A DNA stretch of 63,983 bases, the filler included, from Ionaspis alba (lineage: Eukaryota), in NCBI GenBank assembly GCA_964255285.1. It is 3 parts of 3 records of this genome, joined end to end, with 100 filler letters (N's around TTAATTAATTAA, not from the genome) between each part and the next. Parts side by side here need not be neighbours in the genome. Positions count along the whole stretch, not along the records: positions 1 to 22,768 come from CAXUUL010000196.1; 2 more parts are not named here. The stretch is one strand, 5' to 3'. The notes beneath the pieces are model-generated. The model did not search any database and had not been told where the DNA came from. It worked only from the letters and a program-made list of their open reading frames with translations. Positions 1-62,939 of the stretch are shown one piece after another. How positions within the stretch are numbered: position 1 is the stretch's first letter; each line of letters opens with the position of its first letter. A program made the position numbers and the translations under genes.

Positions 1-3000
1 CCCCTTCCCCTTCGCCCCCTTTCCCACCTCCCTAGCCACGGGCACACGTCTAGGTGCCTGACCCATATCCACTAGGCTAAGTCCACTAAGCTCATGCACC
101 AACGCTGGCGGAGATGTCGGAAGCGCCGGCGAAGGGCAGCTGTGCTCGGTTCCCAGTGCTTCGGTCCCGGTGCCTTGAAGAGGAGAGGTCGACTCGGTGA
201 CTTTGGCGGAGGCAGAAGGGATGCGGGCTGGATCCGGGAGCGTGATGCTCGCGTCGAGTGTCTCGGCCATGTCGTCGAGGAGGACTTCCATAGGAGCGAT
301 GTAGGCTACACTGCTGGAGGGCGAGTAGGCGAGGACGTGGCCGCAGATCTGATTGGTGGCGTTGTCAATTACCCAGGCGCCGGAGTCGCCTCCTTCTGTT
401 GGGTGATTTGTCAGCTGCTTTGCCAAATGGCTCAGATGTTGGGGTGTGAGGTGAGGTGATGGTGACACAACATTGATGTTCATAGGTATGAGCACGGGGA
501 CTCAGGCGTGGAGGAGTGATGCAGGGAGATTTACCTCCAAAGTTTCCCCGAACCTGCCAGCTATGTGAAGCGAAGCTTCGCCCTGGCATACGCACCATAC
601 GCATTGCTGGGAGGATGGTCCCGGTCTGCAGGCCGCTTGTCCTTCCCAGGGCGTGGACATCCAAGCCGCCGAGGTCATTGGCCTTCTTGATTTTGCAAGG
701 ATAGGAGTCTGGATGTGGAGAGGATCCGGTTGAGTCACGCTGGGTGATGGCTTGAGTGTTTGAAGTACCAGCTCTACAGTGTTGAGCTCCTCCCTGGATG
801 ATGTTGTGCGCCTGCATACGATGCTCGTCGATCTTGATTAACGCCCAGTCGACTTCGTGGATGATCTCGTCGCGACGAGACCGTTTGATGCCGGATGAGG
901 CATGTATGTGGCCGAGCGCGTGAGAAGAAAGATGTTCTTCGTTCTTGTCCTCTTCCGTGGGAAAGAACTTCTCATCCACGTCATCGATTGCGGGCTGGGT
1001 GACGACCAGGTCTTCGCCACGGCCAACGTTGATTCCTAGCGTGTCTCCAAGATCCATATCGTATTCTCCGTTCTCCTCTATCCTGGACATTTCATTCTCG
1101 AAGTCGGGAGATAGCCAGAACTCATCATCATCTGCGGAATGATCCTCGACATCGTACTCTCCTTCAGAAATCTCAAAAGGATATACTGCTTCGGGAGGGA
1201 AATTTTGCTTGATACTAGAAGTCGAAGAGTAGTCAGAGGACTCGCTTCGCCCAGAAGAGATCTCAGATGCCTCAGGACACTCGGAGACTTCGAATGAATA
1301 GAAGCCACTATTTGGACGCTGACTATCGGTGGAGAATTTCCCTGGATTGTTAGACGGCAACGAGGTCGGACGAGGTGCTATCGAGCGCTGCAGGTTATAA
1401 CAATCGTTCAGACCCAGTTGACTTTCCTCGTCGTCTTCGAGCATGTGGTGGACACTCATGCCGAACGGTTCTCCGTCGACCAATACAGCACCGCCGAATG
1501 AAACTGGTGGTAGGTGGTTGCCATTACGATAAACTCCTATCGAAGCACCACATGCTGGCTTCTGCTGGTAGTGCGGATTGAGAGATGGGTAGTCTTCCGG
1601 TTGAGATACAGCAGATATCTTAGCCTTCTGCTTGTTCTTGCGATTCTTCTTTCCCGCCTTCGATCGAACGATCTGTCCGGAGACAACTTTGATTTCGAAC
1701 AGACGAAGGTCTTTGTTGAGATGCCTTAGTATCTTTCTGACCTTACCAGTACTGGTACATTCCATGTACACAGTTGGCCTAGCAGTGTCGGCAGCTTCAC
1801 CGGCCATGAAGAGATCGACGGTATAGGATTCCCATCGGCTGATTGCCTTGCTCAAGATACGTTCTAGTTTTGGGAACATTGTTGACGTCCAGTACTTGGA
1901 GTAAAGAGACGGAAGGTCATGAGACCATACTTTGATCGTAGTGGTAGGCTTCTCGGCAATAAGGGACTGCTGTTTGACTGAAGCTGGTATGCTCTGCCTT
2001 TTTTCTTCCTTGGCAAGAGATTTAGTCCTTCCAATGCTCATATAGGTGGAGTCTCGAGCTTCAGTACGCCGATTAGCTACAGATTGACGGCGACGACTCT
2101 GTTCCAGCTCAGATGATGCAAGCGATGTCGATATTGAACTATCAGGCTCGCTATTCTTCTCTATCAAGCAACATCTGCTCAAGGCCTGGATAACCTCGAT
2201 CTGAAACGTTGTGCTGGACGTATCTGTGGTCTGAGTGGAAGGGTCCCCATGCTGAGTATCGGACGAGATACGATCAGCAACTGTCATGCAGTAGAGAACT
2301 GCGTTCATGTAACCCGTTCCACATTTCGCACCTAGCTTCCTGAGATAGATGTCCTGCAGTCGAGATTTGAAGTCTCTTCGAGTGTATTTCGACTTCCAGA
2401 ACTTCCCAATCGGCATCCAGAGTCCTATCTCCAGCAGAATGAGCCCGAGGCTATAGTAGTCGTGTGAGGGCGTATAGTGAGTAGACATTCCGCCGGCCAG
2501 GCTAGGATGATGATATACCCCAGAGAAGCTTCGATCGTCTTCTGTCATGGAATCACTAGGCAGTTGATTGAAAGCTGTCAGGTAAGGTTTCCGGATGATG
2601 GGACCCTTCCATGCTCTATCGTTGGCCGACAAACTATCACGATCGATAAAGAACACGATATTATCGCTGTTCACATTCCGGTGGGTAACACCCATTGTGT
2701 GAACACGACTGACGCTGGAGGCGACGTTAAGAGCAAGTCGAAATCGATTCTCAAGACTCGGCATATTGTTGATATCGGTATCGCCACCATTTTGGAGGAA
2801 CGACAGCAAACTTCGGGGTTGAATATCTCGCCCTCGAGAGACCGACTCTTCCTCCACAGGCGGGACTTTATAGACATAGGCGCAGCGTGACTTTTCTACA
2901 TCCGCCGTCCAGCCTTGTAATTGCAAGATCCCGGTGTAAGATTGTACGGGTTCCTCTGCAAGTTTGAGTAGGGCCAGTAATAGCTCCTCAAACCGAGCAC

Positions 3001-3883
3001 TAACAGGACGTAAGTCTTCGGGTTTGATGTTGCCATAAGTTGGTCCGTAATCGAGTAGGACTGGGACTTCTTTCCCATCAGAAGAAGACTTATTCGAAGG
3101 TGTTGGTAGAATGGAGGAGGATAAATAAGCCAGAGCTCGATTCTCGAGACTAGTGGCGATGGATTCATAAGAGGGAGGCGAGGCACCTAAAGCTTCGTCT
3201 GGGACTCTGAGACGAAGGTAGCTGGAGTTGATTCGGACAGAATCGGTAAGATCGTCGCCGTGAATGGGCTCCGCAATATCTGACACATGACGTTTGACAT
3301 CCGACGGATACACAAGAGGGGCCTTCTCAGCGACAGGGGAATGATTTTCATAGGATCCCTTCCTGTCACGCTTGCTTGAAGGGCTTCCGTCCCGGTACAA
3401 GTCCTCGATTCGAGGTCTTGATAAATCACATAGAGTGTCGATAGACGTCGTCAGGTCCTTTAATATTTCCTCCAGTCGCCTAAGGTTGCCTGGAGTCCAC
3501 CCAGAGTCTCCGGTTGACGTGCCATACGCCTTCATGTCGCCATACGCGCCTGGTATATGAATCGATTGGGGTGGCTGAAGACCTTCGGCTTCGTCTAATA
3601 GCTGTCTGATAGAACACATGATGCTGGCGACTAGATCGCTGATGCCAGCTCTGTCGAGTGAACCATCGATATCCCCACTATTGTGGGCTGCCGTTGAACG
3701 GTCGCTCCATTGAATTCCCCAAGCTATCAATCTATCTTTCTGAATGCGTAACTTGAGATGAAGAGAGGATAATTCAGGACCCTCATGGCGGGTTTGAACA
3801 ACATTTTCATATGATTTTTTGGTATCGGCAAATAATTGGGTCAACCGTCGAGGCAAGACGGTGCTTCCCATGATTGTTTTCAT
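1..3883 (-). CDS. HeLo (prion-inhibition) domain + kinase-like (pseudokinase) domain + trypsin-like/S64-type serine protease protein; 3' end runs off the window
   Basis: First ATG at 3883 (alternative 3871; the 3892 ORF start is TTG). N-terminus has HeLo-type LKLRIQKDRLIAWGIQW. Kinase-like motifs HRNVNSDNIVFF, YHHP, DYYSLGLILLEIGLW. Protease motifs CGASIG, SVHHML, DWALIKI, GRTSG. Intron 534-396 (GTAAAT..GCTGAC..CAG) gives NFGEGGDSGAWVIDNATNQICGHVLA; exon 2 is open to base 1. Confidence 0.85.
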
Positions 3884-6800: not shown

Positions 6801-9568
6801 GCCAACCACTGTCGAGTTGGATCTGACTCGCGGGGGGGCGGCTTCCGTCATTGATGCTTAGGGGGTGGTCAGGGGAGTCGGGGGGGAAGGATTGTCGCTA
6901 ATCGAGTTTCTCCTGCACTTGCGCGTCCCTACCAAACAACCGACGACAAAATGATGATGCTCAACAAATTAAACCACCTTGGGCATGACCGTGACAGGGA
7001 ACACGAGGCTATTCGGCTCTTCAACGATGATAGGGACGCAAATCTCTCGTTGTATTCTTGTCACTTTTTCCTTCGGAGCAGTCGATCACCACGTTTCTTG
7101 GCCAAGGCGATTGTGATTGCCGAGAGAAGAGACACCTTCTAGGAGTGACCCCCCCCGCTACTCCGTTCCGTGCATGTGAGTCTTTGGCGTGCTTTGTGCT
7201 TCCTCTTCCTCCTCCCCCAATTACACACTTCCGCTCCATAACATCGGGAACGGCAAATTGGAAGCCACAAATCAAGCGCGAATGGCGAAAGTGATCCACC
7301 TCCTTCTTTCTGTCTCTTTGTCTCGATTCAGTTCGGCAGTCCCATTGCTTGCGTTTCCCTCCATCATTACCTAAGTTGCGCTTGCCTGTCCAGCCTCCAC
7401 CGATTCCACAGCCATGGTTTCTCCGAAGCCTGGCAGGTGCCGGGTACGACGAGAGCGACACAGGCATCCATGGAGGATGGGACGATGACGGAGATGGAGG
7501 CTTTTAGTCGGAAGGGAAGAAAGGGGAATCGAATGGTGGTATGTAGCTGAAAGTATGATACCCATACTACTACGACTCTAGGATCCATTCGGAGCCAGTG
7601 TCAAAAAGCCTAGTTCGTTCGATTCTTCGACCATGCTTTCCTCCTATTCCAGTTCTTGCCGGAGAGAAAACTCACACTAGAGCTCATCCCCCCTTCGCTC
7701 TTACCCACTCCTCCACTCCGTCCCACATGCCACCCCCAATTGATCCGTGCTACCGATTGCCGGAACGCCATTCTCGCTCGATTTGGTATGGAGTCCTTGT
7801 GTGTGTCTCATCCTCGTCGTCACGGTTTCTGCTTGACGTGCCCCCCTCCTCCTACTAACACCCCCCGGCGATCTTCCTCGAAGCCTGAAGCTTCTGCTAT
7901 TGGCGACAATTCGGCGACGGCGTCCGACGCTTGTCGCTCTAGGCAGCCTTGACATCTCCGGTCATTGGTCTATGCGCCATCAGATCTCAGGAAGGCATGG
8001 GGGTGATATCAAGCCTGCTCGGTGCCCCATTATGGCGGGCTTTCCTCCTCTCATACCCCTTCCCACCACTACGATTGCTCTGTTTCTTTTGCTGCTGCCC
8101 ACGATTCGATCTGTCACACCATGCAATCTGCCTCCTCTTCCCCACGGACATTCCTTCCTTTCTTTGCTGCTGGCATCTAGCCTGCAGATTTGTTCCCAGA
8201 AAGGCATTTCTATTCAATCAAACTCAGCATCGAAACCAGTTACTGGCCACCGGGCTACCAGGTGAGCACGTTTTCTTCCTATCTCGATCATTTTCCACGC
8301 CATCATCTGCGCGAAACATGTCATCAGGTCATATTAGCCCCACAACTTGTCGATCATTCACCCCCCCTGCTCCAGCAGACCTGCATCCGGTCTTTGGCTC
8401 CCTGTGCCTTGAGTCGTGTGTTCCCTTGGATCCGAACTCTGATATGGCAGTCCGTTACAGTGTGTACATCCCCCAGTCTCAACGCTTAACGGCACCGGTT
8501 CCCCTCCGATAAATTCGCCTAAAGAGGTGATCGACTCAGTTCATTCCTTTCTCGCAGAAGGATTTGAAATTCTGCGGCTAGAGATACCACGGAAGGTACT
8601 GGTTACCAGCTGCCCACGTTTTTCTTGAATCCCGGAGTCAATCTTTCCAAATATCCTCATCCACCACCGGAACTGACCTATTGCAGCACTACCTAAAGAA
8701 GGGTCCCATAGACCGACTCTCAAGCGCTGTCTCCACATCATTTGCGAACCCCTGAAATTGTCATCTGTCAGAACAAGCTTCTTCACGGTAAGTGCGTCCA
8801 TGCCAGCGCGCCGCCCGTTGCGGCTTCCGTCCTTCGACCGACGCACGGATTTACCCTAAAAGGTCATGCTACACACGAGGATACACTATTCGATATCCTT
8901 TCCAGCCACGGCGTGCTGCACTCTTCCAGCCCACTTTAACCTTCTACCCTCAAATCGTCGTATTCGACGCCCTTTGTTACATCACATTTTACTCTTTATT
9001 ATCAGCTCGGTTATCCGACTATGAAAATTGTTTCCATCCTGCATTCGAGCCCTCTCGTTGTCGTTGCAAGGAATACTTCGGACTCATATCTGTATATAGT
9101 GTCAGTGCCTCGAACCACCTAGATATCTCCTCGACTCCCACCACGTTTCTAGACTGTCAAAACAGGCTCTCAGGGGAGACATCCTTTTTCCTCGTCGACT
9201 GGATCAGACTTTCCGGAAACAGGAAGCTGCAGTCCTCGAATACGTTGGACGTCATACAAAGAGGCACAGGTGCGAGCAACCTTCTGCATGTGGTTTCACT
9301 CATCACGCGATCATCCACACCTCGAGCTGCATCTCCATGTCCTCAGCCCTAATGGAAGATCCCTTCTGCATGATCCGAGAAGGGCTTGCTGGATGCATTA
9401 ATCTTAATTTTGCGTGGGATGATAGGCGGTGTAGCTAACATTCTTAATAACAGAATTCCCCAGTCAGTGGGAAACAAGTTCATGTCTTAAGCTTTTCGTG
9501 AGCTTTTCTCTCGATCAACGTGGTGGTGTCCAGATCTTTGGGTCCTACTGTACCTCAAGGATCGTTGC

Positions 9569-10680
9569 ATGGCATCGAGGACACTCCCAATGACGAGATC
9601 ACGGGTAGAACACGACCGCCTCCCTCCTCTGGTCGAGGTGAGTTACCATTTATTCTACCCTTAACCCTCGAAAGCTTTACTCACCTCCAAGTCCAGGCTG
9701 TCCCAGAAATTCGTCACACACATCCCTCGTCAGACCGTGGGACGCAGTACACTCGCTCAATCTATGACTCGTCCAGAGCACCAACTCAGTTTCCAGAAGC
9801 TCGTTCTCTCGCACCATCACCCTTGGTCACCAGTAAAACCCGTCCTCAATACACAGTATCGTATTCCTCCAACGGAAGCATGAACTCGCCGGACGAGTAT
9901 CGCTACTCGAATGGCAGCGGAAGACGAGGCAGCTATGCCTCAAGTTCCTCCTCCGGCACTCTACCGGAATTGACGAGAGGAGGCAATCCTATTCTACCTC
10001 CTGTAGCCAGCACGCATTTGCCAATCCGGAACGTCAGCGATCGACCGTCTCGTGATCCATGCAGCCTCCCACCCATATATTCCAACGGCACCAGTAACGG
10101 CTCAACTCTCAATCCCCACCGGCACGCAGTGCCCCCTCAACCAACTCAGATGCCCATCCGCAGAAACCCATCACCTCCCCGACAGATGGCCTATCCACCC
10201 TATAACGGGGTCCCACATCCAGACTACTCCTACCACTCAGGCCAATACATGGAGCGACCACCCTTCAACAACGGTAGCGGCAACGGCAACTATCCTCTGA
10301 GCTTTGATGCTGGCTCCGACTACGGGGACCCGAAACAGAAGCGACGGCGAGGCAACCTGCCCAAAGCGGTGACGGACACGCTGCGAGTCTGGTTCACGAA
10401 CCACGTCGGACACCCTTATCCGACCGAAGAAGAGAAGCAGGAATTGATGAGCCTCACGGGTCTGACCATCAGCCAGGTAAGCAGCAAACTCTACGAATAT
10501 AGATTTACTAGGCAAAGAGCTAACACTTTCCTCCAGATCAGCAACTGGTTCATCAATGCCCGTCGTCGCAGTCTTCCTCAAATGACCAAACAAGCTCAAG
10601 CCGAAGCGGAGATCCGTGAGCAGCAGAATGGCTCATCAGGTTCTGCTAGAGGCGATGACTACCGAGGTAGACACCGATGA
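9569..10680 (+). CDS. TALE/KN-class homeodomain transcription factor (Cup9/Tos8/TGIF-like)
   Basis: Exons 9569-9637, 9697-10476, 10537-10680 with GTGAGT/CAG and GTAAGC..GCTAAC..CAG introns. Spliced homeodomain KRRRGNLPK..WFTNHVGHPYPTEEEK..ISQ|ISNWFINARRR has the TALE PYP insert and WFxN helix 3. Start position is uncertain. Confidence 0.9.
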
Positions 10681-11323
10681 TGTGACTGTCATGACAAAGG
10701 AGCGAGTCATCGACCTGTGCTGAAGAAACACACCCATCGACGCACTGCTGTCAAATGACCAATCACCGGCGAACAAAAAAATCTTACAAGCGTCTCCCGC
10801 TTCGAAGAAGACACCATGCTCGTAGAATGGAAAGGACGGAACGTGGAACAAGGAAATATCTCTTTCTCGGCAAACCCTCGAAATTTCATGCTACTCTCGC
10901 TATCATACGTTCCCAAACAACTCACCAAAGATCCCCTGCTTTTGCTGGTGAAACAGAACAGCGGAGCTCTCAAAGCCCTTAAAAACCCGACAATCGTTCT
11001 TTTTTTGTATTTACTAGCGGGATTGCGGGAATATGGGTGTAGGTGTCTCAAGGGGGAGGATTTGCTTGCTTATAGCGCTTTTTTTCTTCTCCAAGCGCTC
11101 GCTTTTTCGGCTACTTTTTGCTTTATTTGGCTGGTATTGTGGGGTATGTTGGACTGGATTGATCCAGAGAGGGTAGAATGACAGAGGCGACTTTACGAAT
11201 AATGATGCGAGAGTGGTTTCCAGNNNNNNNNNNNNNNNNNNNNNNNNNNNNNNNNNNNNNNNNNNNNNNNNNNNNNNNNNNNNNNNNNNNNNNNNNNNNN
11301 NNNNNNNNNNNNNNNNNNNNNNN

Positions 11324-14300
11324 AAACCTTCCCCTTCCTCTCTCCAAAATTATGCAATCTCTCCCCAACAAGATAAACCTCATCCCTAACCCTCCTCCTC
11401 CACCCGCTCACTGCCCTCATCCCCCCAACAGCAGCTACAACCCCCAACCCTGCGGCCAAACATGCCGGATACGCGTATCGATAAACATTCGCCCTGACCT
11501 CAATGTCCCAAACACCCAACTTATCGACTCCCCACGCCACTCCCGCTGGTAGTCCAATTGCCGCACTCATGACCAGCACCCCCGGAAAGATGAATGCCCT
11601 CGTCGCAAGGCGGACATCGGGATCCAGCCAACCATGCGGTGGCGCAACGATTGCGCGCAAAGCCTGTGCCGGGCGGGAAGTGGCGTGCGCAAGGATGAGG
11701 CGGGTGAAGGCTTTAAGGGTGAGCACGCCCAGCGTCCAGGACTGGATTGCGTGGATGGTGTGGCGGGGAGGTGTGGGAGAGAGGTAGGTGTGTAGCGGGA
11801 GGAGGAGGTAGAGTTCTGTGAGAGCGGCGAGGAGGGATGGGAGGAGCAGGAGGGTTGTGCTGTAGAAGTAGGTGAGGCGTAGGAGGTGCAGGGTGGAAGT
11901 GCGGATGGCGTTACGGAGGGTTTTAGTGGAGGGGAGATGAGGGTGTGATAGGTGTTGATTGTCCCAGCGAATGCGGAGATGAAGTGGGAAGGAAAGATGT
12001 CGCGGGGAGAGTCGGATGAGAAGGTAGATGGGGAGACCGAGGACGTAAATTCCGATTGAGAAGGCGTAGATGTCGTTCATGCGCTGGTGGGCTGGAATGA
12101 GATGGGTGAAGATGCGACGACCGACGAGGAGCGGGATGACTGTTAGGCTGAGTCCGGTCATTGCGGCGAAGAGCCAGATTAGTAGGATGAAGAGCCCGAT
12201 GCGAATGCGGAAGTGTGGTGGAACGTAGAGTGTTGTGAACTGTTTGTTCTCGCGACCGTGGAGTCCGTGTGTGGTGTCGGGGAGGCCATCGGTGCGGCGG
12301 CCTGAAGCGTCCACTTCGACGAAGGTGCGCGCGCCTTTGGGAATGCGGACTTGGTCGGATGCGGGGGCGCGGACATAGCGGCCGGACTTGATGAAGTTGG
12401 GAGAAGTGAGCTGGTTGGAGGATGTGGGCTCGGCTTCTTTCTCTTTAATCGCCTCTGTAGTGGGTTTGCCGTGGAAGGACAGGATATCGCGCCACCTGCG
12501 ATGAGTAAAGTGACCCTCTTCATCATCCATCTTTTTGTCGAATAAGAAGTGCGAAAGCCGAAGCATCCTGGCGCATTTCTTGAACCACCATTCATACATG
12601 AATTTGAGACCCTTGGAGGGAGTGAAGAATCGGACTGCGAGTGGCATGAGGAAGTTGTAGACTAATAGGTCGATGGGAAACTCTAGGACTGGTTCGTTGG
12701 AAGACCAATGGATTGGAAAGACGCCACCTATTGAATAGGAAAGTCCCCAGACCACGCTGCCTAGGCAGATGATGACTAGTGCGCCATACACCAAGGCACT
12801 GAATGCGATCTTTCGAAGCTGTGTAGAAACGCTGCGTTCGAGAACGTCTCGAACTGGATGGAAGGTCGGATCATCAGGATCCCGAATGAAGTCTGGGATG
12901 GATTAGTATCTCCTAAACAGGATTATTAGGTTAAGGTTGACTTACGAAGAACTCCACTACGCAGAATCTTCCGGCACATGGCAACGAACAAGGCGAAGTG
13001 GAACATGTAACAAGTACCGACAAACCAGTGAACGAAGAGAGATGTGGCAGGCGAAGTGATAGTGAATTGGAACCTCGTCAAAGCCGTGGCATTCTCGAAA
13101 AGAGGGAGAAGTGCAAAGTCAAGAAGTAGCCCACAATAGAGTGGGAACACAATCATCTCGATACTGATGATGAGTATAACCTTCAAGACACCACCGGCTT
13201 GGTACAGAACATCTGCTACTGAGCCTTCCGTCTTCTCGCCTTCTTGAGCAGTGTGGAAAGCGGAACGGATTCGAAGGTAGATGGCTCCCGCGACAAAGAA
13301 GAAGAGATATCCTAGCAGAATCGTAATGACCCTGTCTCTCGTACTCCATTGTGCCAGACTGAAATCCAAAGGCCGTGTTCTTTGAGGGATGTCAAGGCTG
13401 ATCCGTAAAGGATTGATGTTCAGGATTGCAGGTACCAAGGCAATAGTCTGTCGAAGAGCAATCACGAGGCCAGTATAGAGAGCCTTACAATTGCTCACGA
13501 AGCTATCAGCTACGAAGGTAGCGGTTGTTCCGAGATCCAAGGTATTGCCGGAGCAGCTCTCAGCCATTGACCTAGAAGCAGCCAGTAAGGCTTTTCCCGC
13601 ATCCGCGAAATATTGCTCAATCGTATTCAGGGACTCATGAGCAATGATGGAGAAGACCGGGATATCAGAATCCGATAGACCTTCACCGGTCGCCACGAAC
13701 ATCTTGACAAGTCGGTCGCCAGCTGAATGCGCATAGTTCCATGCAGCTCTAGACAAAGGTCTGCTCCTGTTCAACCTTGCAAGAAATGGAACTAGCCAAC
13801 CAACAGGAGTCACAGCTAGCCCAACCGCAGTATCCACCCAGTAAAACGCACAGGCAGCGCAGAAGACACAAGTATCGATGATCAGATCGGCCGTAACGGA
13901 AGCCCATCGCAGCGGCAATTTGACAAGAAGCGATATGGGATTGGCGAGGAAGACCAAGAAGAGCTTGCCTGCTATGTAAGGGATCCATATGCCGAAGAAG
14001 ACAGTCAACGAAATGAGGACGGCACAGAACATGCCATTCTGGACGAGACCTGCCAAGGGTCCTTGCATACCGATCAATTCCATGATTCCCTCGAGATCTT
14101 CTCCGTCTTCAATAGCTTCGGGGTCATTGAGATCGACTCCCGCCTGCGCAGCAGCACCTGCAACTTCGGGATCTTCGCCACCATTGTCTCGCGCATTGGC
14201 ATCCTCAATCTGTAACTGTCCTTGGACAACGGGAACAAAAGGATCCTCAGCAGCGGCGTCTCTGATCACATGTTCGTCGTCTTCTCCAGGCTCCTCATCT

Positions 14301-16636
14301 CGCACTTCTTGCTGGGCGACACCCCCCCACAACCAATCTATCATTGTTTCGCGTATGCCTCGAGGCTCATGTACTGCAGCAGGGGGTTCCATGGGGGCAG
14401 GTTCGGAATCAGCTGCGACAGGTTCCACAGCAGTGGGTTCTGTGGCTATAAACTCTGCGGAAGGAACATCTGTGGAAGCGGACTCGGGCTGGCTTTCGAA
14501 GGTGGGCGATTCAGGCAGATCGTGGAAATACTCATCTCTCCCATGAGGCGGCGCTGGGGTAAAAGGAGAGATCCCCAAGAGCTTTGCCATCGGAACTTCG
14601 TCATGTTCTGGAAATTTCTCCGAAGGAGGCAGAAGAATGGAGTTGCCAGTGCTACTCCTTGATGGTTGTGAGTGGTCTGTAACGCTTATCTCCACTCCGG
14701 CGTCTTTACTCGTCCTCGGTCGAGGCCATCTTGCTTTACCTTTGTCGTATTTGTGGGCACTCATTCGTGCGGGCACGCTTGAAGCACTTGGGGGTGTTTC
14801 TGTGTCGGCAGGGCTCGTGTCGTTCTCATTGGTAAGTTCCTCGAAGCTAGAGGTTCGTGGCATAGTGCTTTCATCTGCCGTTGAAAGAGTTTGCCCCGTT
14901 GATGACCCGGAGGACTCTTCGATTACTTGCCAGCTTTCGTTGCTTGTATTGCTGCTTTGCTCACCAGTATTCTCCACGTCTATCTGTGCAAAGGCCTCGT
15001 CCACATTGTGAACTTCAGTATTGGAGCTTCCATCTATCGAATTCTTTATGAGTCGATCCATAACCGCCACCACCCAGCCCAGCTCCTCACTTCGACCTTC
15101 CTCATCTATGATCTTCAAAACGTTGGCAGGATTGTGATCCGCACGTCTCCACAGGTCCATGAAAACCTCGAGTCCAGGCCAGTTATGAGGTACCGTCCTT
15201 GGATGCTCTTCAAGCGTACGACGAATCTCGGTTGCTGTGGCTAGAACATCTCTCGTTGGCATGCTCGGTCTGTGATTATTATTTGATGGTCCAGCTGACG
15301 TTGTAGATTGATTTTGCATTTCTGTCGTGCCACTCGGACTGGAAGATAGCCTCGAAGATCCTTGTGTAGGGCTATATTCATCAAGAAATCGGGCGTAACC
15401 TTCGGGGTGCTCTTCCGGTTGTTCAAATCTGACAGGCCGCCGTGCTCTTGGTCTTGCCATCATCCGAGCTTCTCGTACAGCTCTTGCTTCAGAGGCTTCT
15501 TCATTATCCGCGTCTGGCGCATCTCCTGGTAGGTTTAGCTCCCGTGTCTCGGGAGGAGCTTGTTGATCCTGCCGATCTTCAAGTCTTAAGGGCGGCACGT
15601 TCTCCTCTCGGGGTCGTTCTACAGCTGCGGCGGCCGCGAACGCTGCACCCATATTTATGGCCGGTTGTTGCTGGACAACCCATTCTCTGATTAGGAAGAT
15701 TAAGATAAAAGCGATAACAACAAAAAGAGTAATTAGTTGACCTTCTAGCACATCGATGATCATGTTGTTGAATGTCGTCCACCTAGTTAGCCGACGGAGG
15801 AAGCTGATGTCCGAAAGCCAAGAAGGTGAGCGTTGCGAAGATCCAGCGAATGTAGTGGCATTTGAAGGCTTCGTATCGTTCAAACTTGCTGGTATTACCG
15901 AACCATAGTAGAAAACTCCTCTGAAAACACGCTTGGCGAATTGAAATAAGGTAGGATCCCCAGCCGTAAAATTGAGCGTCTGAAATATGGGTGGCCGGAA
16001 TGGAGGAAGAATATTGGAGAATATTGAGACCTTCAAGGTAGGATTCGAGGTTGCCATATCCTTAGCGGACATAAGCCCTCTGCTAGCAGCCGAAGTTCCT
16101 TGCGGTGCTAGCTGCTCTGTGGTCATTGCACCCAGCGCAGCTTGTTTCTCCATCTGTTGCCAATTTATCCAGCCCCCATCTCCAACCCAGAATAGACCTC
16201 TCCACACAGTCCGCATGCACCAAGGCACCCAGCCGAGCCATACGAAGACAACGAGATGCCATCGCGCCCACGTCACAAAGCTCTTCAGTGTATGTATTGC
16301 GGCTTGCCGGAGGAAGATAGGTAGAGGAACAGTGCTGGGCATCTGAGGATGGTAGAGTTTGGTGAAACGGAAAGAGGTCTTGCATAATTCGCAATGTTTC
16401 TTCTGCGAGTGAGACAACCATTCCATCAAGCAAGCTTGGTGCACGAATTTGATGCTGCCACTGCACTTGCAAGGGTAGAACAAAGGCTCTTCCTTTGAAC
16501 CCTCTCCCCGACATATTCGACATGTGTCCGGCTCTTCTGTGCCCTTGCTCTTGCCCTTTAAATTCGTCTGGTAAGCCGGATCGTTCATGACGTCGGGCTG
16601 TGACTGTGGACTTGCTGGTGGAATGTCTGAGTCCAT
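11324..16636 (-). CDS. DOA10: ERAD RING-CH E3 ubiquitin ligase Doa10/Ssm4 (MARCH6 family); 3' end interrupted by gap
   Basis: N-terminal RINGv CRICRGEGSKEEPLFYPCKCSGSIKFVHQACLMEWL..CELC, many TM segments, intron 12945-12893 giving [23 protein letters not shown], C-terminal RDEVYLVGERLHNF. Confidence 0.95.
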
Positions 16637-16844
16637 CTTGAAGGGAACGAGCTGTCTGAGGCGTTTAGGTGTGTATAAAAGTTGGCTGCAATTCAGTAGT
16701 AAGACTGAAAGGAAACAAAGGTATCAGTGTGAGTCAGGACACCAAGTGAATGGCTCCCGAGTAGAGGTTGGATATCAGAGGTGGCGAAACAGAGATCCCC
16801 GAACAACTGTGCGCCATACAAAGTTCCCAGATCAGTATTTCACT

Positions 16845-17613: not shown

Positions 17614-20600
17614 ATGGGCGTTAAGACGAACGGTCGGCCGGTTGACTTGCCAAAATCCAAACCTAACGGCCTTATCGTTGCTAAACCTTCACAACCGACA
17701 CGACGGAATGCTGGAATAGCAATAAGATCCTTCAGCTTGGCCGCGAGGTAATAAAATAGCGCAAAAACTCATTTCCTGAACCCACAAGCTAATGGTTGTG
17801 CTCTAGGCTGCTGGTGTGGTACGCAGTCTTTATTGCTGCGTTCCAATGTCCATCCTCATTAAACGACATAACCGAGGACTCTTCAAGAGTTTGCAGGCCT
17901 TACTTGACAGCCAGATCACAAGTCGCACCGTACATACAACCTTATTATGATGCCTACGCTGCACCTTACGTCCAGGCTGCACAGCCATACATCAACAAGC
18001 TCGATGAGCAGGTATACCGACCAGCAGTCGGCTTCAGCAAACAGAGCTATACAAAGTATGGAGCACCACGGGTCAACCAAGCTTCTAGCTATGGAAAAGC
18101 CCAGTGGGAAACATCTTTGAAGCCTCGGATCGAAGCCGCTCAGGCCAAGGCAAAACAACAATATGACGCTTCCCTAGCACCTCATGTGTCAAGGGCATCC
18201 GCAGCGACCGCCCCATACTATACTGCGGCCCAGGACAATGTACTACGTACCTATCAATCGCAAGTCCTTCCGGCATATATGGCTTCCCGACCGTATGTAA
18301 CCAGAGTATACGAGCTTGGACATAAGGCTTTGATCGAGACTGGAATCCCTTATGCACAGTGGGCATGGACTACTTCGGCTGTCTTCATCGACCGCACGCT
18401 TTGGCCGAGAGTCAGGATACTCTACGGAAAGAACGTTGAGCCGCAGCTCGTCAGAATAGGTGAACGATTGGGCCGGTACCGGGACGGAAAGAAATTGAAG
18501 GCTGCCATGGAAGAGGTCAATAGGTACGTTCTCCTTGATCCTTTCTAGCGTTAGGGCTGTGATCGAACATGCTAACCATGTTTGCCCTAGCATCCATGAC
18601 TCTTCTGTTTCTTCGGACCTCTCTTCCTCAACGATCACAACTGCACAGTCGGCCAGCACTCAAGATGCTACTAGCTCAAGTACTTCGGTAGTGGAACTTC
18701 CTTCGTCTACTCCAACAAAAGAGGAAGAAGATCGAAAGATTCGCGAGAAGATCGAAAACGACCTTAAAACATGGGAAGAGAAGTTTGCCAAGGCCGCCGA
18801 TAAAGGCACCGATGACCTCGAGGAGCGTGTTCAAGAGATTACGCAGCGCCAAATCGAGAAGCAAGTACATGGAGTCGGTGCTGCAATGGTTGTTCAGATT
18901 GAAGAAGTGGCTGCATCCGAGATTGGAAAACTAAAAAAGACCATCAGGAAAGTCGTCAAGTCACTTCCAGAAGAGCCTTCTGATGAAGATGAGAAGACGG
19001 CAGAAGACGAAGTTGCGAAAGCCGTTCGAAGTGCCGGTCTAGCCATCAGGACAAAAGCTTTGGCCTTAAGAGAATGGAGACAGAAATGTGACGCGGAGAC
19101 CCATTCGTTGGTGACTGCCGCCTCGGACTCGACCCTTGAGGTAATTGACAGCATCCGTGATCTTGGCTTGCAGGAACTAGGTATGAGGTGGGCATGGATG
19201 GAAGGCGTGACTTACGAGGATTGGGAAAAGTATAATGAAGTCAAAAAGGATGACTGGCGGGAAGAAATCGAAGCTGTTGCAACAACTCACCAAGGACTTG
19301 CTGATGCCAAAGCAGCAGCCGAAGAAGTCGAATCTCAAGGCATGACTGCGGCGGGAAATGCAGGACAAGAATTAGCAAGATTGAAAGATGTCGGTGTCTG
19401 GAAGATCAGGGCCAAAGATGACACGGATGATTTCAGCACCAAGGCTCTACCACCAAGAGCTGCTGCCGCGGGCCAGAAGGTTATGGATAAACTCAGTTCT
19501 GCCAAAGACTCTATCGTAGGGACCTCTCAAGGTACGGCGGACTCCATCATCTCACAAGCTTCAGAAGGAGCTGCCAAGGCCGCTTCTACCGTCTCTTCAG
19601 GCGTTGTCGGCGAGGAGCCTCCAATGTACGAGAGTGTTGCCTCAGTGGCAAGTGCAAAGGTTGGTGAAGCGTCTCAGCAGGCCTCAGAGGCTGTTATGGG
19701 ATCTACAGCTGCACATGAGAAAGCCCGCTCGTCTGCGAACTCCCATATCAAGCAGGCGAGCGAAGCTGTTGCCGATAAAGCTAGTAGTGTTGCATCGGCA
19801 GCAAGCAAGAAGGCAGATCAAATCTCCACTGATGTCAGCTCTGCTGTCATTGGAAGTTCGACACCAGGCTATGAATCCGTTGCATCTGCAGCCTCCAAGA
19901 GCATCAAGTCTGCCGCCTCACAGGTTTCCAAAGCTATTCCAAGTTCCTCGACCCCGGTTCAAGAGAGTGCGTCCAGCATCGCTTCCTCAGCAGCTTCTAG
20001 TGCTTCTTCCGTTGCTAGTCAAGCGTCAGCAAAGGTTTACGGTGGTGCAATGGCACAGAAAGTCGGAGAAAGAGTACCAATATTGGACGACCCGATCAAC
20101 GAGGATGACGATGCCACCTACTCTGCGAAACTGCAAGGCATTGTAAATCAAGCAGGAGACAAGTATGCCGACGCCACACGTGCGGTCAGTGAGGCGTTCG
20201 CTCCGGCAACCAAGACCCAAGGTGCCGCGGGGAGCATTACATCCCTGGCAAGCGAGCAGTATTCGAGTGCTCTTGCTGCAGCTTCAAGTATCCTATATGG
20301 AGCGCCTCAAGGTACTGGTGAAAGCATCTCGAGTGTTGCTTCGGGTATATATGCGGAAGCAGTGGCAGCGTAGGTGTCCCCTCAACGAGCCCGATTAACA
20401 CCGTGCTAACAATCACAGCGCGTCATCGATCATCTACGGCACTCCTCTGCCTGCCACAGCATCCCTTGCTGCTCAGGCTAGCTCAAAGTACTCAGAAGCT
20501 GTAAGCCTAGCTCAGGAGCAGTATACGCGAGCCAAATCAATGGCTTCAGAGCAGGTCTCTGGGAGCCCAAAGCCCGTTCATCAACAGATCTTAGCCTCCA

Positions 20601-22513
20601 TCGAATCTGGGTACTCCGGATCTCTAGCTGCCGCGAGCAAGCGTCTTGACTCTGCATTGAGCGCTGTCCATGCGACTTCTGCAAATCCGCAGCAGTCGGT
20701 CATGGTAGCTGCCAATGCTAAGTACTCAAGTGCACTGGCTGCAGCTTCATCTCAGTACGATGCAGCTAAGAGTGCCTTGGGTCCCAAATCTACTCCTGGA
20801 TACGAATCCGCCATGTCTGCTGCGGGTAAGAGCTATTCCGACCTTCTCAGCGCGGCAAGCTCGCAATATGCTGCCGCTACAGATGCTGCCAGCAGCGCTG
20901 CGTATGGTCCTCCTCAAGGCGTGCTTGAGTCAATATCCGCTATGGCATCTTCCCGCCTTGCAGATAGTCTTAGCCTAGCATCTGCCCAATTATCTAGTGC
21001 CAAGTCTGCCGTCGGCGCTACACCAACACCAGCTCATCAGCAATACATTGCCGAGGCTCAAAGACGCTACTATGAGGGTATTGGCCTCGCACACGAACGG
21101 TACTCTGAATTCGTGGCTGCTGCTTCAGGAGCTGTCTACGGCACACCCACACCGGTCCATCAGAGCTTGTACAACGCTGTTGTTGGAACGCCCAAGCCTG
21201 GTTACGAGAGTCTTCTTAGTGCTGCTCAAGCCCAATACAGCAATGCGGTATCTCAAGCCTCAGCCGGTCTCCAAGACGTGCTTGCCTCTGCCAGCTCTGT
21301 TGCTGGCAAGACAAGCAAATCGCCTACCAAGAGCATGCTCGACTCTGCCTCTTCTCAATACAGCTCAGCACTCTCCGTGGCCTCAGCGTCAATGGCCTCG
21401 GTGTCTGAAGCTGTTAGTGCCGCCATGTATGGCACATCTACAGGGAACGTGGAGTACATGACCTCAATGTTGTCCGAGAAAGCAGCCTCCATCTCTGCTG
21501 CGGCCAGCACCGCAGTCGCAGGGTCAGAAACTCCCTGGACCGAATCGCTCGCTAGCCAAGCCTCTCAAAACTGGGAGGCTTTGGTCTCCAAAGCCAGCGA
21601 AACTGTCTATGGTCAACCGACTCCCTTCTCCCAATCCATCCTCTCCCAAGCAGGCGAATACGCCTCCCAAGCCACCGACTCCGCCGCCGCTCAGTTCGTC
21701 GCAGTGCAAGCTCTCTTCTCCGAACTCGTCAACGGTAAAGAACCTGATTTCACAGAAAGCGTCATGAGTCGCCTCAGCTCCGCCTACCACACCGGCGCAC
21801 ACATCAGTATTGCCTCCTCCGCCTCCAGCTACGCCAGTGAGGCCTACGCCTCCGCCTCTTCCGTCGTCTCCTCTGTCTTCACACCCCCCGCTACGCTCGA
21901 AGCTATTCTTGAAAGTGCTAGCGAGCAGGTCAATGCTGCTGTTGAGGCCGCCAGTGTCCAGTACTATGGTACCAGCAAGGGGACTTACGAAAAAGCAACA
22001 TCGGCGGCTGCGAGCTCTTACTCCTCGGTGTCGTCGAAAGCCAGCGTTGCGGCTTACGGCTCTCAGACTGGATACGCCGAAGCAGCGCAGAGCTCAATCC
22101 AGGACGCTGCCGCCTCGGCTCAAAGTGCCATCTCGGCTGCTATTTATGGGACAAAGGTCGGTGCCACAGAATCCGCTACCAGTGCCGCGGCGAACGCCTA
22201 CGCCTCCGTCTCTTCCGCGGTAGAGGAGAACCTTTCAGCTGCATCATCGGTGGTCGGCGACACGGTATCGAATGTCCAGGCGAAGGTCAGCTCCGCTATC
22301 TACGGACCTGAGCAGGGAGCTGTGGAAAGCGCGCAGAGCAGACTTAGCGCTGCGGTCGAGAGTGCGAGAGCGAGGTTGGCGGAGATGGTCGAGGGCGCTG
22401 GGGAGGGCGCGAGCGAGGCTGTGAAGAGTGCGAAGAGGGGTGTTGAGGATATGGCGAGTAGTGTTAGTAGTGCTGCTGCGAAGGCTACGGGTAGGGTCAA
22501 GGATGAGTTGTGA
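17614..22513 (+). CDS. She10-like ER protein (family often auto-annotated 'Hoxa13'), Ser/Ala-rich repeats, C-terminal KDEL
   Basis: Exons 17614-17747, 17807-18523, 18591-20369, 20419-22513, all GT..CTAAY..AG and frame-consistent. TM RLLVWYAVFIAAFQCP, motif LGMRWAWMEGVTYEDWEKY, KVYGGAMAQ, ends RVKDEL. Confidence 0.85.
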
Positions 22514-42111: not shown

Positions 42112-43623
42112 TTAGTTGTTCTTGCTGAACCGCCTTTTGAGCCAACTTTTCCGTTTTTCTCCCTGATCAGCCTTCCCGTTATGCGAATATCCATTGACTG
42201 TGGGAGGTGGCGGCATTGGATTCCCTAGCTTCATCGGGACTCTTGGGCCTTTGTCCTTAGCTGGGAGGTGAGGCGGAGGAGCAGGGGGAAATCCATTTCC
42301 TTGAACTCCTGCTCCACCATAGCTCTGTTTGGGTCGTCCATAACCAGGATGTCCATACGCGGGAACATTAGTCCCATACTCCTCCAATATTGGGCCTTGG
42401 AACTGCGGGCTTCCTCCAAATCCGCTTAGTCCATAGTTCTCGGTAGGCTCTGGCTTCGGAGCCTGCTGGATCTTATCAATCGAGCTATTTTCGCTGCTCG
42501 GATCGGTCGAGTTGCCCCATTGGTCCGTCGCATGACTGCCAGTACCGGACGCAGAAGTCACGGTGTCGTAAGACTGCTGGTACCCGTTTGTGGGATAGAC
42601 TCCTTGGTTGTTGTTTCCATACAGAGCGGGATCAGAGGCATTCCGTGGTCCAAAGCGACGACCCTGATTGTACTGTCCGGGCTGATTCGAATATGTATCG
42701 ACATAGCTCTCTGGTCGGCTGTAAGACATTCGATTACTATAGTAGCCTCCTCCGTCTCCTGGAAATCGCTGCTGCGGACTGCTGTTGTGGTATCCTATAC
42801 AAGCAATAGTCAGCATTTTGCTAAGCGAGTCTTGGGCAGTAAAAATAGCCGATCGCGAGATCGCTCGTGAAACTCCGAGAGTGCTAGTGCGACACGCGGC
42901 AGTTGCGCAAGCACCCTCCCAACTGTCCGTCCGACCAAGGAGTTGGTTCCCCTCTGCAGAATTTTGGTGCGGAAAGACTTGCGAAGAATATAGAAATAGT
43001 CGATTTATTCGTACCTTGATAGTAGCTGCTCCGGCGACTCTGGGCATTTCCAAAGTCCTGAGTTTCTGTCTCATGTGTCAGAAATTCATCACTCAAGCCT
43101 CAGCAGCCGTAGATTGTGTACCTGGTCTTGTAGAGAACCTCTTAGAATAGCTCCCGTCAATTGCGGCCTCGAAAGAACGTATTGTATCTAAGGGCCGCTC
43201 GAACCGTGGTCGTGTAGGATTGGACCGGTCAGGATCAGCTGCAAAGACCATCAGTAGTGGAACTTCCATGGGTGTGCTTCTACAAACGTACTTATGATGT
43301 TGCCATGAATGTCCCGATGTTGGATGTTCCGGATGGACTCCATTGTCGACTCTTCTAAAGCTTGAGCAGCTGTGGAGTACTGTCAGTAACAGTGCATGTG
43401 GGTTGTATCATGCCTCCATGAGAGTCTTTCACCGACCTGGCTGTGCTTCAGTCATGGCCTTCGTTGGATCTGCCTTGGACGTCATCCTCCTGGCCGACTT
43501 CTCTTTCGGTGACTCGGTCAGGTCGACTTTGCCAACAGAGCCATTGCTCCTGTGGCTCCTCGTGCTGCCAAAGCTCAGCATCGACTTTGAACGAGGTCGG
43601 CTCGGTGTTTGTGGAGATGCCAT
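42112..43623 (-). CDS. DUF2406 family protein
   Basis: Exons 43623-43437, 43369-43292, 43238-43122, 43065-43015, 42794-42112. KADPTKAMTEAQP, HRDIHGNIITDPDRSNPTRPRFERPLDTIRSFEAAI, C-terminal KRKSWLKRRFSK. Confidence 0.88.
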
Positions 43624-59237: not shown

Positions 59238-59362
59238 GTAAAGAGCAGTAGATGTCGAGAATGCATCACGTATTTAGGTGGCTGTGACAATATTATTCGA
59301 CCGGACAGGCTGGGTTGACAGAGGAGTATGTGTGACATGTAGATATTATTACTGTGCAGAGC

Positions 59363-59572: not shown

Positions 59573-59915
59573 GCTTTGCCGATCTATTGACTTTGTTACA
59601 TACTCTCCACTTCCCAATCAATTGAAACCCCTGGACACAGTGCATCCGCACGTCCATCATCAATAACCAGCGTCCTCGAATATCACGCGGTGCCACATTG
59701 ATCACTTTACCTACGGTTATCCAGCATTTGCTTCACAACAGCACCCAAATACCACACTATGTCAATGACACGCTAGGAATGCTATCGCAATCAAACTCCC
59801 GGAGGTGAGCCCGCTCTGGGAATCCGCCCATCCCACGTTAGAAGACCTCGGCAGCGGCCATTGTACTCGAAAGAAGCATGGACTGCGCGGAGAACAATAT
59901 ACACATTCCTCGACA

Positions 59916-62900: not shown

Positions 62901-62939
62901 AACTTGGGGCCTGCAGACTTTCAGAGAGTATCACTATAG
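59916..62939 (+). CDS. Uncharacterised fungal protein with coiled coil and C-terminal hydrophobic segments
   Basis: About 1007 aa from ATG 59916 (59805 is GTG). Coiled coil KYIEHLESQL..NLERRVDVLTELLAQSP; hydrophobic LGGLGWWLLGLIF and WLRFSLAIVLAIGVAIKDGP. Confidence 0.85.
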   Translation: MAHAHPLPDGFCLPSHLSSHHLNNPTYASSTAATPNSRLINLPRQQDQVSHQKRRLQLRNAGFRAPVLPARRISPFFSNTTPVFEQPTSAQTVHSENSPGASERRTLYGEDLPPSPVSILQEISNSSRRVRQSPRPAISTIFQDSTATEGTDAATSWYHEASNNPSPLQQPEKSPKMPKLREVSLNEKTPPIFNSPPAKQAKGRKKTKLHLRSASFEATKYIEHLESQLGSLNTRMEALTSPTTAKTQAAKLRGLHSQVRSQRQELSEWEKKFGERVDDEIYRRTKLEAGLKLRIQTLEEEAQVKDMKIKELGWELESALIKAREAESLGTTNQNLERRVDVLTELLAQSPTRTSLHSASAPGGNDSVASPKRTPRPKSLMLPRIPSSPGATRFSSNIGIDTSAWYGRNSLSASSISESPDEEITQSLDGALAAAAHNSLDFSNTRSTSVQSSIDQATFSRPGASVSSRPTSVISSSSFGASWGLPPPVGVSEDPRSASRPRKMRRFPSGSCALKPLVLPTTTVTQSLPASAPVHGSYDYPSREASNSSIDPTSAVLSRPQDRSPFVTPTQPVRRRSATWAQNQALKALEGKAQWTPDDEICHSESKDAAHEVLFDEEKSITVEDLPSSRLTKRRSLQAELEQAQKLGLGMSDVTSASADGSAKCDTDKTYRVRSPEGELILGALKAAYHPSHRSPLLRRHCSSEQSVSIPEHSPRSSALPPSPEKTSASSALISNNPVTIFSRLPGLVTSIKHDPLSLARTILRNAWSTGRSSRLGGLGWWLLGLIFRSRRKKRTDKADEKVVEEEPAPGWDWSPYSAEASKRRRVDSHVQEMRDQTRKRTSRDELGRAEHRDDCKGVEEMAVSPSALRIFEVPIQPLAYRCEDCVEPSSRRSFRLWLRFSLAIVLAIGVAIKDGPGALLVDMPLQHRLIDEPARRKRDQTVHHDERSFSRTRRSEQRTQPVPNRELSTTKGQGGRKTPNPNEGYWGWEATFVENLGPADFQRVSL

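Follow-up and report, generated by a model that had tools for sequence, protein, structure and literature searches.

We analysed a 63,983-nt stretch of DNA from Ionaspis alba (assembly GCA_964255285.1), hereafter the window, which joins three records of this genome and whose positions 1 to 22,768 come from CAXUUL010000196.1. At its start, on the minus strand, lies a fungal gene that is real and nearly complete. It encodes a protein of 1248 amino acids (aa) or more, with no predicted transmembrane segment, which combines a HeLo-family helical bundle, a pseudokinase and a serine protease in a single chain. We consider this architecture, taken alone, near-certain. As to its function, we favour, with a probability of about 0.5, a regulated, membrane-directed intracellular endoprotease, similar to the rice protein NAL1, which would be built on a necroptosis-like chassis and gated by an MLKL-like module, and not a proven suicide device. 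A first-pass annotation of this DNA had compared its HeLo-type bundle and the pseudokinase that follows with the layout of MLKL; the comparison stands, and all the sequence features listed there were found where it had placed them.

Within the window, the gene consists of the following parts:

535..3883, minus strand: exon 1, 1116 codons plus one base, from the open frame and its translation
396..534, minus strand: intron of 139 nt in phase 1, GTAAAT...CTGAC(414-410)...CAG, with the same junction in NCBI gene models of homologs
1..395, minus strand: exon 2, partial, which leaves the window at base 1; the frame 1..501 is open at its 3' end

Scanning for open reading frames (ORFs) and translating them revealed a long minus-strand frame, open from 3970 to 365, whose first methionine is the ATG at 3883; the protein then starts MKTIMGSTVLPRRL..., in agreement with the N-termini of homologs. 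Without splicing, this frame ends at the stop at 365 and the catalytic serine is lost. The intron at 534-396 is of the GT..AG type, with donor GTAAAT, a branch-like CTGAC at 414-410 and acceptor CAG, and in the spliced model (535/395) the end of exon 1, ...AACTTTGGAG, is joined to the start of exon 2, AAGGAGGCGAC.... Exon 1 ends in phase 1, the junction codon being made of G(535) and AA(395-394), which encodes Glu; the spliced junction reads SWQVRGNFG-E-GGDSGAWVIDN, with GDSG at 390-379. An alternative acceptor, the AG at 416-415, was discarded: it is located upstream of the CTGAC site and keeps the exon-1 frame, leading to the stop at 365 without GDSG. The spliced reading spans 1248 aa within the window and contains no stop codon. 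Because exon 2 is still open at base 1, the window contains neither the stop codon nor the last part of the tail; judging from homolog P0001, the missing 3' part would amount to some 25-30 codons. In tblastn comparisons, the gene was single-copy in the window.

The same junction appears in homologous genes. It reads GNFGEGGDSGAW in the NCBI eukaryotic gene models P0007 and P0008, and the models of P0022 and P0097 carry that motif too, but encode a different residue at the junction codon (GNFGSGGDSGAW and GGFGVGGDSGAW, respectively). We also classed the 120 best homologs by the residues that follow the G.FG motif: 33 showed the spliced form, 74 were ORF calls that ended at most 80 aa past G.FG without GDSG, and five continued through an insert of 24-42 aa that keeps the frame, with three more outside the G.FG pattern and five other cases. 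This adds up to 79 of 120 homologs (74 truncated and five read through) interrupted at the same point as the gene of I. alba, and the interruption is therefore conserved. The splice signals and the homolog gene models support the splicing of intron 534-396, as well as the first-pass claim that GDSG is formed only upon its removal.

The protease module and the tail that follows it comprise these elements:

1664..1951, minus strand: alpha/beta subdomain, aa ~645-740, corresponding to model residues 1-90 (confidence score ~90) and placed like the ATP-binding domain of NAL1
1559..1663, minus strand: basic loop (RSKAGKKNRKNKQK...), aa 741-775, with 9 Lys/Arg in 35 residues
235..1558, minus strand: serine protease domain of chymotrypsin fold and clan PA, aa 776-1170, from Foldseek and VIA; the span includes the intron and the acidic insert
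1445..1450, minus strand: His-His of SVHHML, aa 812-813, one of which is the catalytic His; SVHHML starts at aa 810 and occupies 1456-1439
1019..1423, minus strand: acidic, Ser/Thr-rich disordered insert, aa 821-955, between the catalytic His and Asp (confidence score <50)
848..850, minus strand: catalytic Asp, aa 1012, of DWALIKI (850-830)
382..384, minus strand: catalytic Ser, aa 1121 after splicing, in GDSG (390-379)
1..234, minus strand: disordered C-terminal tail, aa 1171-1248, incomplete; mean identity 0.13, motif PTSPPAL

Conservation is highest in the protease barrels. In a comparison of the window protein with 90 full-length homologs, pre-selected for three protease motifs, the barrels reached a mean identity of 0.54-0.71, followed by the HeLo part and the alpha/beta subdomain (0.46 each), the pseudokinase (0.35) and the two linkers (0.07-0.08). 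Because these 90 sequences were pre-selected for protease motifs, we took the counts for the catalytic triad from a set of 274 fetched homologs aligned with hmmalign to the hidden Markov model of the family, and here and below each site was counted only over the rows that cover it. His is present in 252 of 253 homologs at each of the two candidate positions, Asp in 264 of 265 and Ser in 146 of 150, with two T and two A. In A1 numbering, H171/H172, D374 and S472 are likewise invariant in all 35 spliced homologs. This near-invariance of the triad argues for catalysis.

Since the window protease is split by the intron, we folded its closest correctly spliced homolog, P0007 (aa 631-1154, 67% identical to the window protease part), together with 34 spliced homologs. 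The model had a mean predicted local distance difference test score (pLDDT; the confidence score given above) of 64, with values of 83-93 in its ordered parts, and shows a beta-alpha-beta-beta-alpha-beta subdomain, a disordered basic loop and two beta-barrels with a long acidic insert. Foldseek matched it to SGPA 2sga (the top match, E 4.9e-5), alpha-lytic protease, Rv3671c, Deg1/HtrA and NAL1, with probability 1.00. When the Foldseek matches were aligned with VIA, NAL1 8pmm_A obtained Z 14.7 over 260 aligned residues (root-mean-square deviation, rmsd, 4.9; model 11-524 versus chain 87-447), alpha-lytic protease 1gba Z 14.3 (179 aligned, rmsd 3.2) and 3sgb_E Z 14.2 (173 aligned, 2.9 Å). An unbiased VIA search of 48,161 representative chains also placed NAL1 on top, with Z 14.7 and 14.4 (258 aligned, rmsd ~5.0, model 4..524 versus chain 90..447), and next Lysobacter L5 with Z 14.3; its best 50 rows were all chymotrypsin-fold proteases, with Z 13-14.7. 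Among the matches listed, the alpha/beta subdomain is covered by the NAL1 alignments only.

Sequence comparisons did not reach this result. With the window protein as query, no Pfam protease family matched at E<=1, and with 22 protease-only fragments the best Pfam matches were Peptidase_S3 (E 0.16) and S64 (E 5.9), in one member each. A profile of the protease-only fragments retrieved from the PDB only alphavirus capsid proteases around GDSG, with non-significant E values of 0.13-2.6. NAL1_N and Nal1_C were absent from the precomputed Pfam assignments of 240 homolog rows, the presence of both models in the Pfam copies being unconfirmed. A language-model search for look-alikes retrieved unnamed Ascomycota clusters at 0.96, and S64 (0.89) and NAL1 families (0.86-0.87) as weak leads. 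The trypsin fold with its His, Asp and Ser, proposed in the first-pass annotation, is thus borne out by fold matches and triad counts, but not the family match to trypsin or S64 that it expected: no Pfam protease model matches, and the nearest solved structure is NAL1. As modelled, the protease is a sequence-level orphan, recognised by its fold alone.

The regions around the barrels also show conserved positions. Residues G89, R93, S94, K95 and K98 (A1 numbering) of the basic loop are invariant in 35 of 35 sequences, and in NAL1 the basic loop residues of the equivalent domain hold the ATP phosphates (PMC12012508, available sections); as regards ATP binding, the invariant R-S-K..K loop after the subdomain is only suggestive. 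The acidic insert, with 28 Asp/Glu and 27 Ser/Thr in 135 residues, contains the conserved islands YPFEISE and FWLSP.F, in which Y261 and P262 are invariant and F263, W283, L284 and F288 nearly so. YPFEISE forms a short beta-strand in the model, and the island might act as a pseudo-substrate or serve for docking. The otherwise unconserved tail has a family consensus SP..PTSPP.L (window ~100-140). A homodimer prediction with two copies of P0138 aa 670-1096 scored 0.00 and, run without alignment or controls, is evidence neither way.

Upstream of the protease, the protein is made of a kinase-like domain and a linker:

2153..3259, minus strand: pseudokinase (protein-kinase fold, DUF7580), aa ~209-577, from Pfam, VIA, Foldseek and a profile search of the PDB
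3167..3178, minus strand: PPSY (a PPxY motif), aa 236-239, in a loop at the place of the kinase Gly-rich loop, between the first two N-lobe strands
2660..2683, minus strand: catalytic loop HRNVNSDN, aa 401, with the HRD Asp replaced by Asn, from translation
2567..2575, minus strand: AFN in the place of DFG, aa 437, from translation
1952..2152, minus strand: linker 2, aa 578-644, disordered, rich in Ser/Thr and Lys/Arg (pLDDT <50 for 575-640; mean identity 0.07)

The N-terminal part (aa 1-640) was modelled with AlphaFold2 using 56 homologs, with a mean pLDDT of 72. The model contains helices at 12-29, 36-67, 81-101 and 131-155, disorder at 161-208, an alpha/beta domain of two lobes that reaches ~575 and again disorder at 575-640. 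Pfam DUF7580 matched aa 350-559 with 31.3 bits (cut-off 27), and the generic Pfam Pkinase model remained under its cut-off. VIA-align superposed CRAF and MerTK on model residues 211-582 with Z 20.0 and 262-264 residues aligned. The kinase matches from Foldseek included JAK1 (E 1.3e-7), MLKL 4btf and 8slz (both ~1e-6) and also MLKL 4mwi and 6bwk, and a family profile run against the PDB retrieved LIMK1 (E 4.6e-5), whose catalytic loop in the profile alignment is HRNLNSHN, and MLKL 4m68 (E 0.0026). On the predicted structure, aa ~205-580 can firmly be assigned a protein-kinase fold.

We designate this domain a pseudokinase because the HRD Asp and the DFG Asp are lost and no Lys was seen in the putative beta3 strand; the description given in the first-pass annotation, of a kinase-like domain without the HRD Asp and with AFN for DFG, proved accurate. 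At the HRD Asp position, the covering homologs show Asn in 148 of 213 cases, Asp in 26 and Ser in 14, and at the DFG Asp position there is no Asp in any of 211 (S 123, G 44, A 32). The beta3 position, which we took as model strand 273-279, would be occupied by Asp or Glu in 192 of 195 homologs, and never by Lys. The PPSY motif is also highly conserved (P 155/161, P 155/161, Y 154/161) and lies beside a segment of low pLDDT, at 230-235. PPxY motifs bind WW domains, and PPSY is a candidate ligand that might dock the WW domains of Rsp5/NEDD4-type ligases.

The N-terminus of the protein is formed by:

3404..3883, minus strand: HeLo-family helical bundle, aa 1-160, from Pfam PF14479 and four long helices in the model
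3260..3403, minus strand: disordered linker 1, aa 161-208 (pLDDT <50; mean identity to homologs 0.08)

Pfam PF14479 (HeLo) matched aa 14-103 to positions 9-94 of its 205-position profile, scoring 33.8 bits (cut-off 23.2, E 3.9e-8), which agrees with the HeLo-type N-terminus of the first-pass annotation, and it is also found in the precomputed Pfam assignments of most of 120 homologs. In structure searches with the aa 1-640 model, kinases filled both hit lists and the bundle was barely compared. A phmmer search of the PDB with the HeLo part retrieved STAT5, Vipp1 and HET-s 2wvo at E 0.28-0.65, none of them significant; the match to HET-s 2wvo_A (E 0.65, not significant) is collinear, 17-79 versus 17-80. 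We found no transmembrane propensity in the N-terminal helix: the Kyte-Doolittle 19-residue mean did not exceed 0.38 over the first 40 aa or 1.02 over the whole of aa 1-160, and the first 35 aa include six Lys/Arg and three Asp/Glu. A search for short proteins with this HeLo subtype produced 20 matches, all apparently fragments of the same family.

Certain homologs carry additional domains. A phosphoinositide-binding domain, PX, is included in the precomputed Pfam list of six of the 120 best homologs (P0069, P0078, P0092, P0097, P0100 and P0104); in P0097, from Lasallia pustulata, the only one of these inspected, it is located between HeLo and the pseudokinase. The PX-bearing variants give a hint that the target may be a membrane. 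In the precomputed Pfam assignments of P0091, SH3 domains are listed along with DUF7580, and HeLo is not.

Database searches found the family in several classes of fungi. Using the protease part as a query, HMMER retrieved, from 1.84 billion cluster representatives (50% identity), 254 clusters with E<=0.001, of which 216 had E<=1e-10. Proteins of at least 900 aa make up 94 of the best 150 of these 254 clusters and, among the matches listed, the match is C-terminal in long proteins. Thirty long representatives were compared with Pfam: 22 contain HeLo and/or DUF7580 at E<=1e-4, in some cases with DUF7580 under its cut-off, seven have no Pfam match, and the remaining one (P0252) shows an MIT domain below threshold. 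Among the 120 best homologs, most align over 97-100% of the protein with 42-74% identity.

Named members occur in Lecanoromycetes (Xylographa, Lambiella, Schaereria, Lasallia and others), Dothideomycetes (Lindgomyces, Viridothelium, Elsinoe, Macrophomina, Patellaria and Elasticomyces), Eurotiomycetes, Leotiomycetes and Sordariomycetes, as well as in Geoglossum and Candelaria; Myotisia and Trizodia are further examples. The protease profile also retrieved members from Colletotrichum, Metarhizium, Cercophora, Collariella, Glarea, Hyaloscypha and Rhynchosporium, in which HeLo was found and the kinase-like part was sub-threshold. In Xylographa, there is one named protein per species in the five species listed. 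The first-pass annotation had supposed that homologs are annotated only as HET-s/LopB domain proteins. This holds for some of them ('HET-s/LopB domain-containing'), but others are named 'hypothetical', 'DUF7580 domain-containing' or 'Protein kinase domain-containing'. In all, domain matches and alignments identify the I. alba gene as the local member of a Pezizomycotina-wide family that, as predicted from its sequences, almost always retains all three modules.

The genes next to it are the following:

9502-10680, plus strand: KN-homeobox protein, a neighbour of the gene
11193-16723, minus strand: large RING-variant / MARCHF6_C (Doa10-like) ubiquitin ligase, in two ORFs presumably split by an intron

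No NLR, gasdermin or amyloid-motif partner was found within 12 kb beside the gene. Farther along, the window contains ordinary housekeeping genes and one HET-domain gene, an ORF with PF06985 (E 9.8e-29) at 57210-59273 on the minus strand, ~53 kb from the gene along the joined window. Long open frames of up to 1056 aa without a Pfam match (E up to 1e-5) occur at 17793-22513 (plus), 42112-43077 (minus) and 59769-62939 (plus).

According to the reading that we favour, the protease would be catalytically competent and would supply the enzymatic output of the protein, and the HeLo-pseudokinase half, itself non-catalytic, would serve as an MLKL-like module for switching and targeting. A conformational change in the pseudokinase, whether through phosphorylation or through binding of a partner, would set the location of the protein, at a membrane or an endosomal surface, and would at the same time control the access of the protease to its substrates. 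Cutting of its own flexible linkers would be a plausible step of activation or release.

Several points weigh against this reading. The HeLo assignment comes from one Pfam match, and the site counts were obtained from proteins retrieved by their similarity to this very protein. A conserved triad is not proof of activity. The likeness to NAL1 is structural only, with 15-17% identity in the alignment and no match found at the sequence level; its Z score ties, within 1 Z unit, with those of alpha-lytic-type proteases; and ATP binding and cage formation, by which the function of NAL1 is defined, are putative in the fungal protein. This analysis identified no substrate, membrane or activating signal, and we found no experiment or RNA data for the gene or for any homolog.

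The protein could instead be a self-contained cell-death switch, whose protease would cut its own linker and release the HeLo or HeLo-pseudokinase part for insertion in the plasma membrane, killing the cell; it would then be an MLKL activated by proteolysis in place of phosphorylation. A HeLo-family domain plus pseudokinase is indeed the MLKL layout, and the same protein contains an intact protease; both of its long disordered linkers lie within reach of a protease, and the strand-forming YPFE island in the protease's insert could serve as pseudo-substrate. Moreover, HELL domains exist in some fungal kinase or pseudokinase proteins, and fungal gasdermins are activated by proteases (PMC12881547, available sections). 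Nevertheless, we consider such a switch unlikely. A transmembrane-prone N-terminal helix is the key functional element of HeLo/HELL effectors, according to the available part of a 2023 review (PMC10197012), and this hallmark is missing from the charged helix described above. The linkers, with 7-8% mean identity, contain no conserved motif, and the 12 kb beside the gene hold ordinary or housekeeping neighbours and none of the partners that we looked for. Finally, all domains are kept across classes, with one named protein per Xylographa species, as in a core gene, although this is a weak argument. Because these four points weigh against the death switch, we ranked first the more general reading of a switch, or gated protease. 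A broader version, a pan-Pezizomycotina necroptosis-like executioner, has an outside chance of being correct: here a NAL1-like cage would cut its own linkers to free or cluster the HeLo-pseudokinase part at a phosphoinositide membrane, with PPxY subjecting it to Rsp5-type control through ubiquitin.

The yeast protease Ssy5, whose proteolytic activity responds to a receptor, suggests a different device. The HeLo-pseudokinase part would be an inhibitory prodomain, removed after signal-induced ubiquitylation by an Rsp5/NEDD4-type ligase recruited via PPxY, and the freed protease would clip a latent regulator, for example a transcription factor, as NAL1 does with FZP. The conservation of PPxY, in 154-155 of 161 covering homologs and on an exposed loop, fits this proposal, as do the order of the chain, with a chymotrypsin-fold domain at the C-terminus after a large non-catalytic N-terminal region, the Peptidase_S64 cluster at 0.89 in the language-model search, which is a lead only, and the action of NAL1, the nearest structure, on a transcription factor (PMC12012508, available sections). 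However, PPxY is short and may be kept for structural reasons, Peptidase_S64 was matched by one of 22 protease fragments with E 5.9, and no candidate substrate is known; there was also no solved Ssy5 structure among the structural matches, and so no comparison with Ssy5 was made. We find the proposal distinctly unlikely. It is very improbable that the protease fold is merely an oligomerisation or scaffold module that clusters the HeLo-pseudokinase part, or that it makes a single cut in cis, like alphavirus capsid protease: the capsid autoproteases are the sole sequence-level PDB matches and NAL1 works as a trimer/hexamer cage (PMC12012508, available sections), but those matches (E 0.13-2.6) are not significant, capsid proteases are absent among the structural neighbours listed, and the three triad residues are nearly invariant. 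An annotation artefact, with two genes read as one or a decaying pseudogene, is hardly credible, since nothing points to it other than the window cutting the 3' end. Against it stand an uninterrupted frame of 1116 codons that spans HeLo, pseudokinase and most of the protease, the nearly full coverage of the protein by most of the best homologs, and the recurrence of the full-length architecture in several fungal classes; as far as can be judged from sequence, the single frame and the full-length homologs rule out a gene-fusion artefact.

We found no paper on DUF7580 or HeLo combined with a trypsin-like protease in fungi, in full-text searches that included few subscription journals and no supplements. 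A protease fused to a HeLo-pseudokinase is not mentioned in the available sections of PMC12881547 and PMC10197012; those of the former mention fungal HeLo/4HB-pseudokinase fusions in passing only. We thus found no earlier study of the combination of HeLo, pseudokinase and protease, and an earlier mention may exist. The combination matters because HeLo, or the four-helix bundle (4HB), plus a pseudokinase is the core of animal necroptosis and of plant MLKL-like immunity, and the conserved protease in cis offers a handle that is easily mutated (Ser-to-Ala). It also shows that ascomycetes widely possess a structural counterpart of the NAL1-like module, which is known from a gene for rice yield, and no model in the Pfam copy searched describes this counterpart. 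As the family is present in tractable fungi and in many lichen-forming ones, simple tests could tell whether the protein serves cell death, signalling by proteolysis, or the two together. If it were an executioner armed by proteolysis, it would represent a third HeLo/4HB trigger, besides amyloid templating and kinase signalling, and would connect regulated cell death with the NAL1-type proteases of plants.

The protein can be compared with several known systems. It is similar to MLKL and plant MLKL-like proteins in its N-terminal HeLo/4HB four-helix bundle followed by a pseudokinase, and full-length mouse MLKL (4btf) produced the longest Foldseek alignment, with 553 columns and E 9.3e-7. However, the rmsd of this alignment is 25 Å, so the domain arrangement differs or is undefined. 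Nor is MLKL the closest by sequence, because LIMK1 (4.6e-5), LIMK2, RAF1 and CLK1 outrank 4m68 (0.0026) in the profile search. In MLKL, bundle and pseudokinase are joined by the brace, made of structured helices, whereas in the fungal protein they are linked by a disordered segment of ~50 residues; additionally, the fungal protein has a protease module of 600 aa that is found in no MLKL.

For the protease module, rice NAL1 was the best structural match both in the Foldseek-seeded and in the unbiased searches (Z 14.7, 258-260 aligned, rmsd 4.9-5.0), and the aligned range of its chain, 87/90..447, corresponds to its ATP-binding and serine protease domains. These have been described as an unusual ATP-binding domain, 89-172, and a protease, 184-458, with the triad H234/D291/S385, in a protein that acts as a trimer/hexamer cage and as a regulatory protease on the transcription factor FZP (PMC12012508, available sections). 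Unlike the fungal protein, NAL1 lacks HeLo and pseudokinase, and the fungal domain contains an acidic insert of ~135 aa between His and Asp. The two-barrel core superposes best, by rmsd, on the alpha-lytic and Streptomyces griseus proteases (S1E). Nevertheless, these are secreted bacterial enzymes with pro-regions of their own, while the fungal one is multidomain, with large inserts, has no transmembrane-like hydrophobic stretch and does not match the Pfam trypsin family. Yeast Ssy5 (S64) has a C-terminal chymotrypsin-type domain after a large regulatory N-terminal part. The fungal protein shares this order, with a large N-terminal part before a C-terminal chymotrypsin-type domain, and an S64 cluster is among its look-alikes (0.89); yet Pfam S64 is unmatched (E 5.9 in one of 22 fragments) and the N-terminal halves are unrelated.

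Among fungal cell-death proteins, HET-S and HELLP share with it the match to PF14479, above the gathering score, but the protein of I. alba has neither a C-terminal prion-forming or amyloid motif nor an NLR partner nearby, and its N-terminal helix is charged instead of transmembrane-prone. The HET-Q1/HET-Q2 system is similar in concept, being a membrane-targeting executioner controlled by a serine protease (PMC12881547, available sections). There, the gasdermin and its protease, subtilisin-like (S8) or CHAT, are encoded by two genes; here, by contrast, a single chain unites a chymotrypsin fold with a HeLo bundle.

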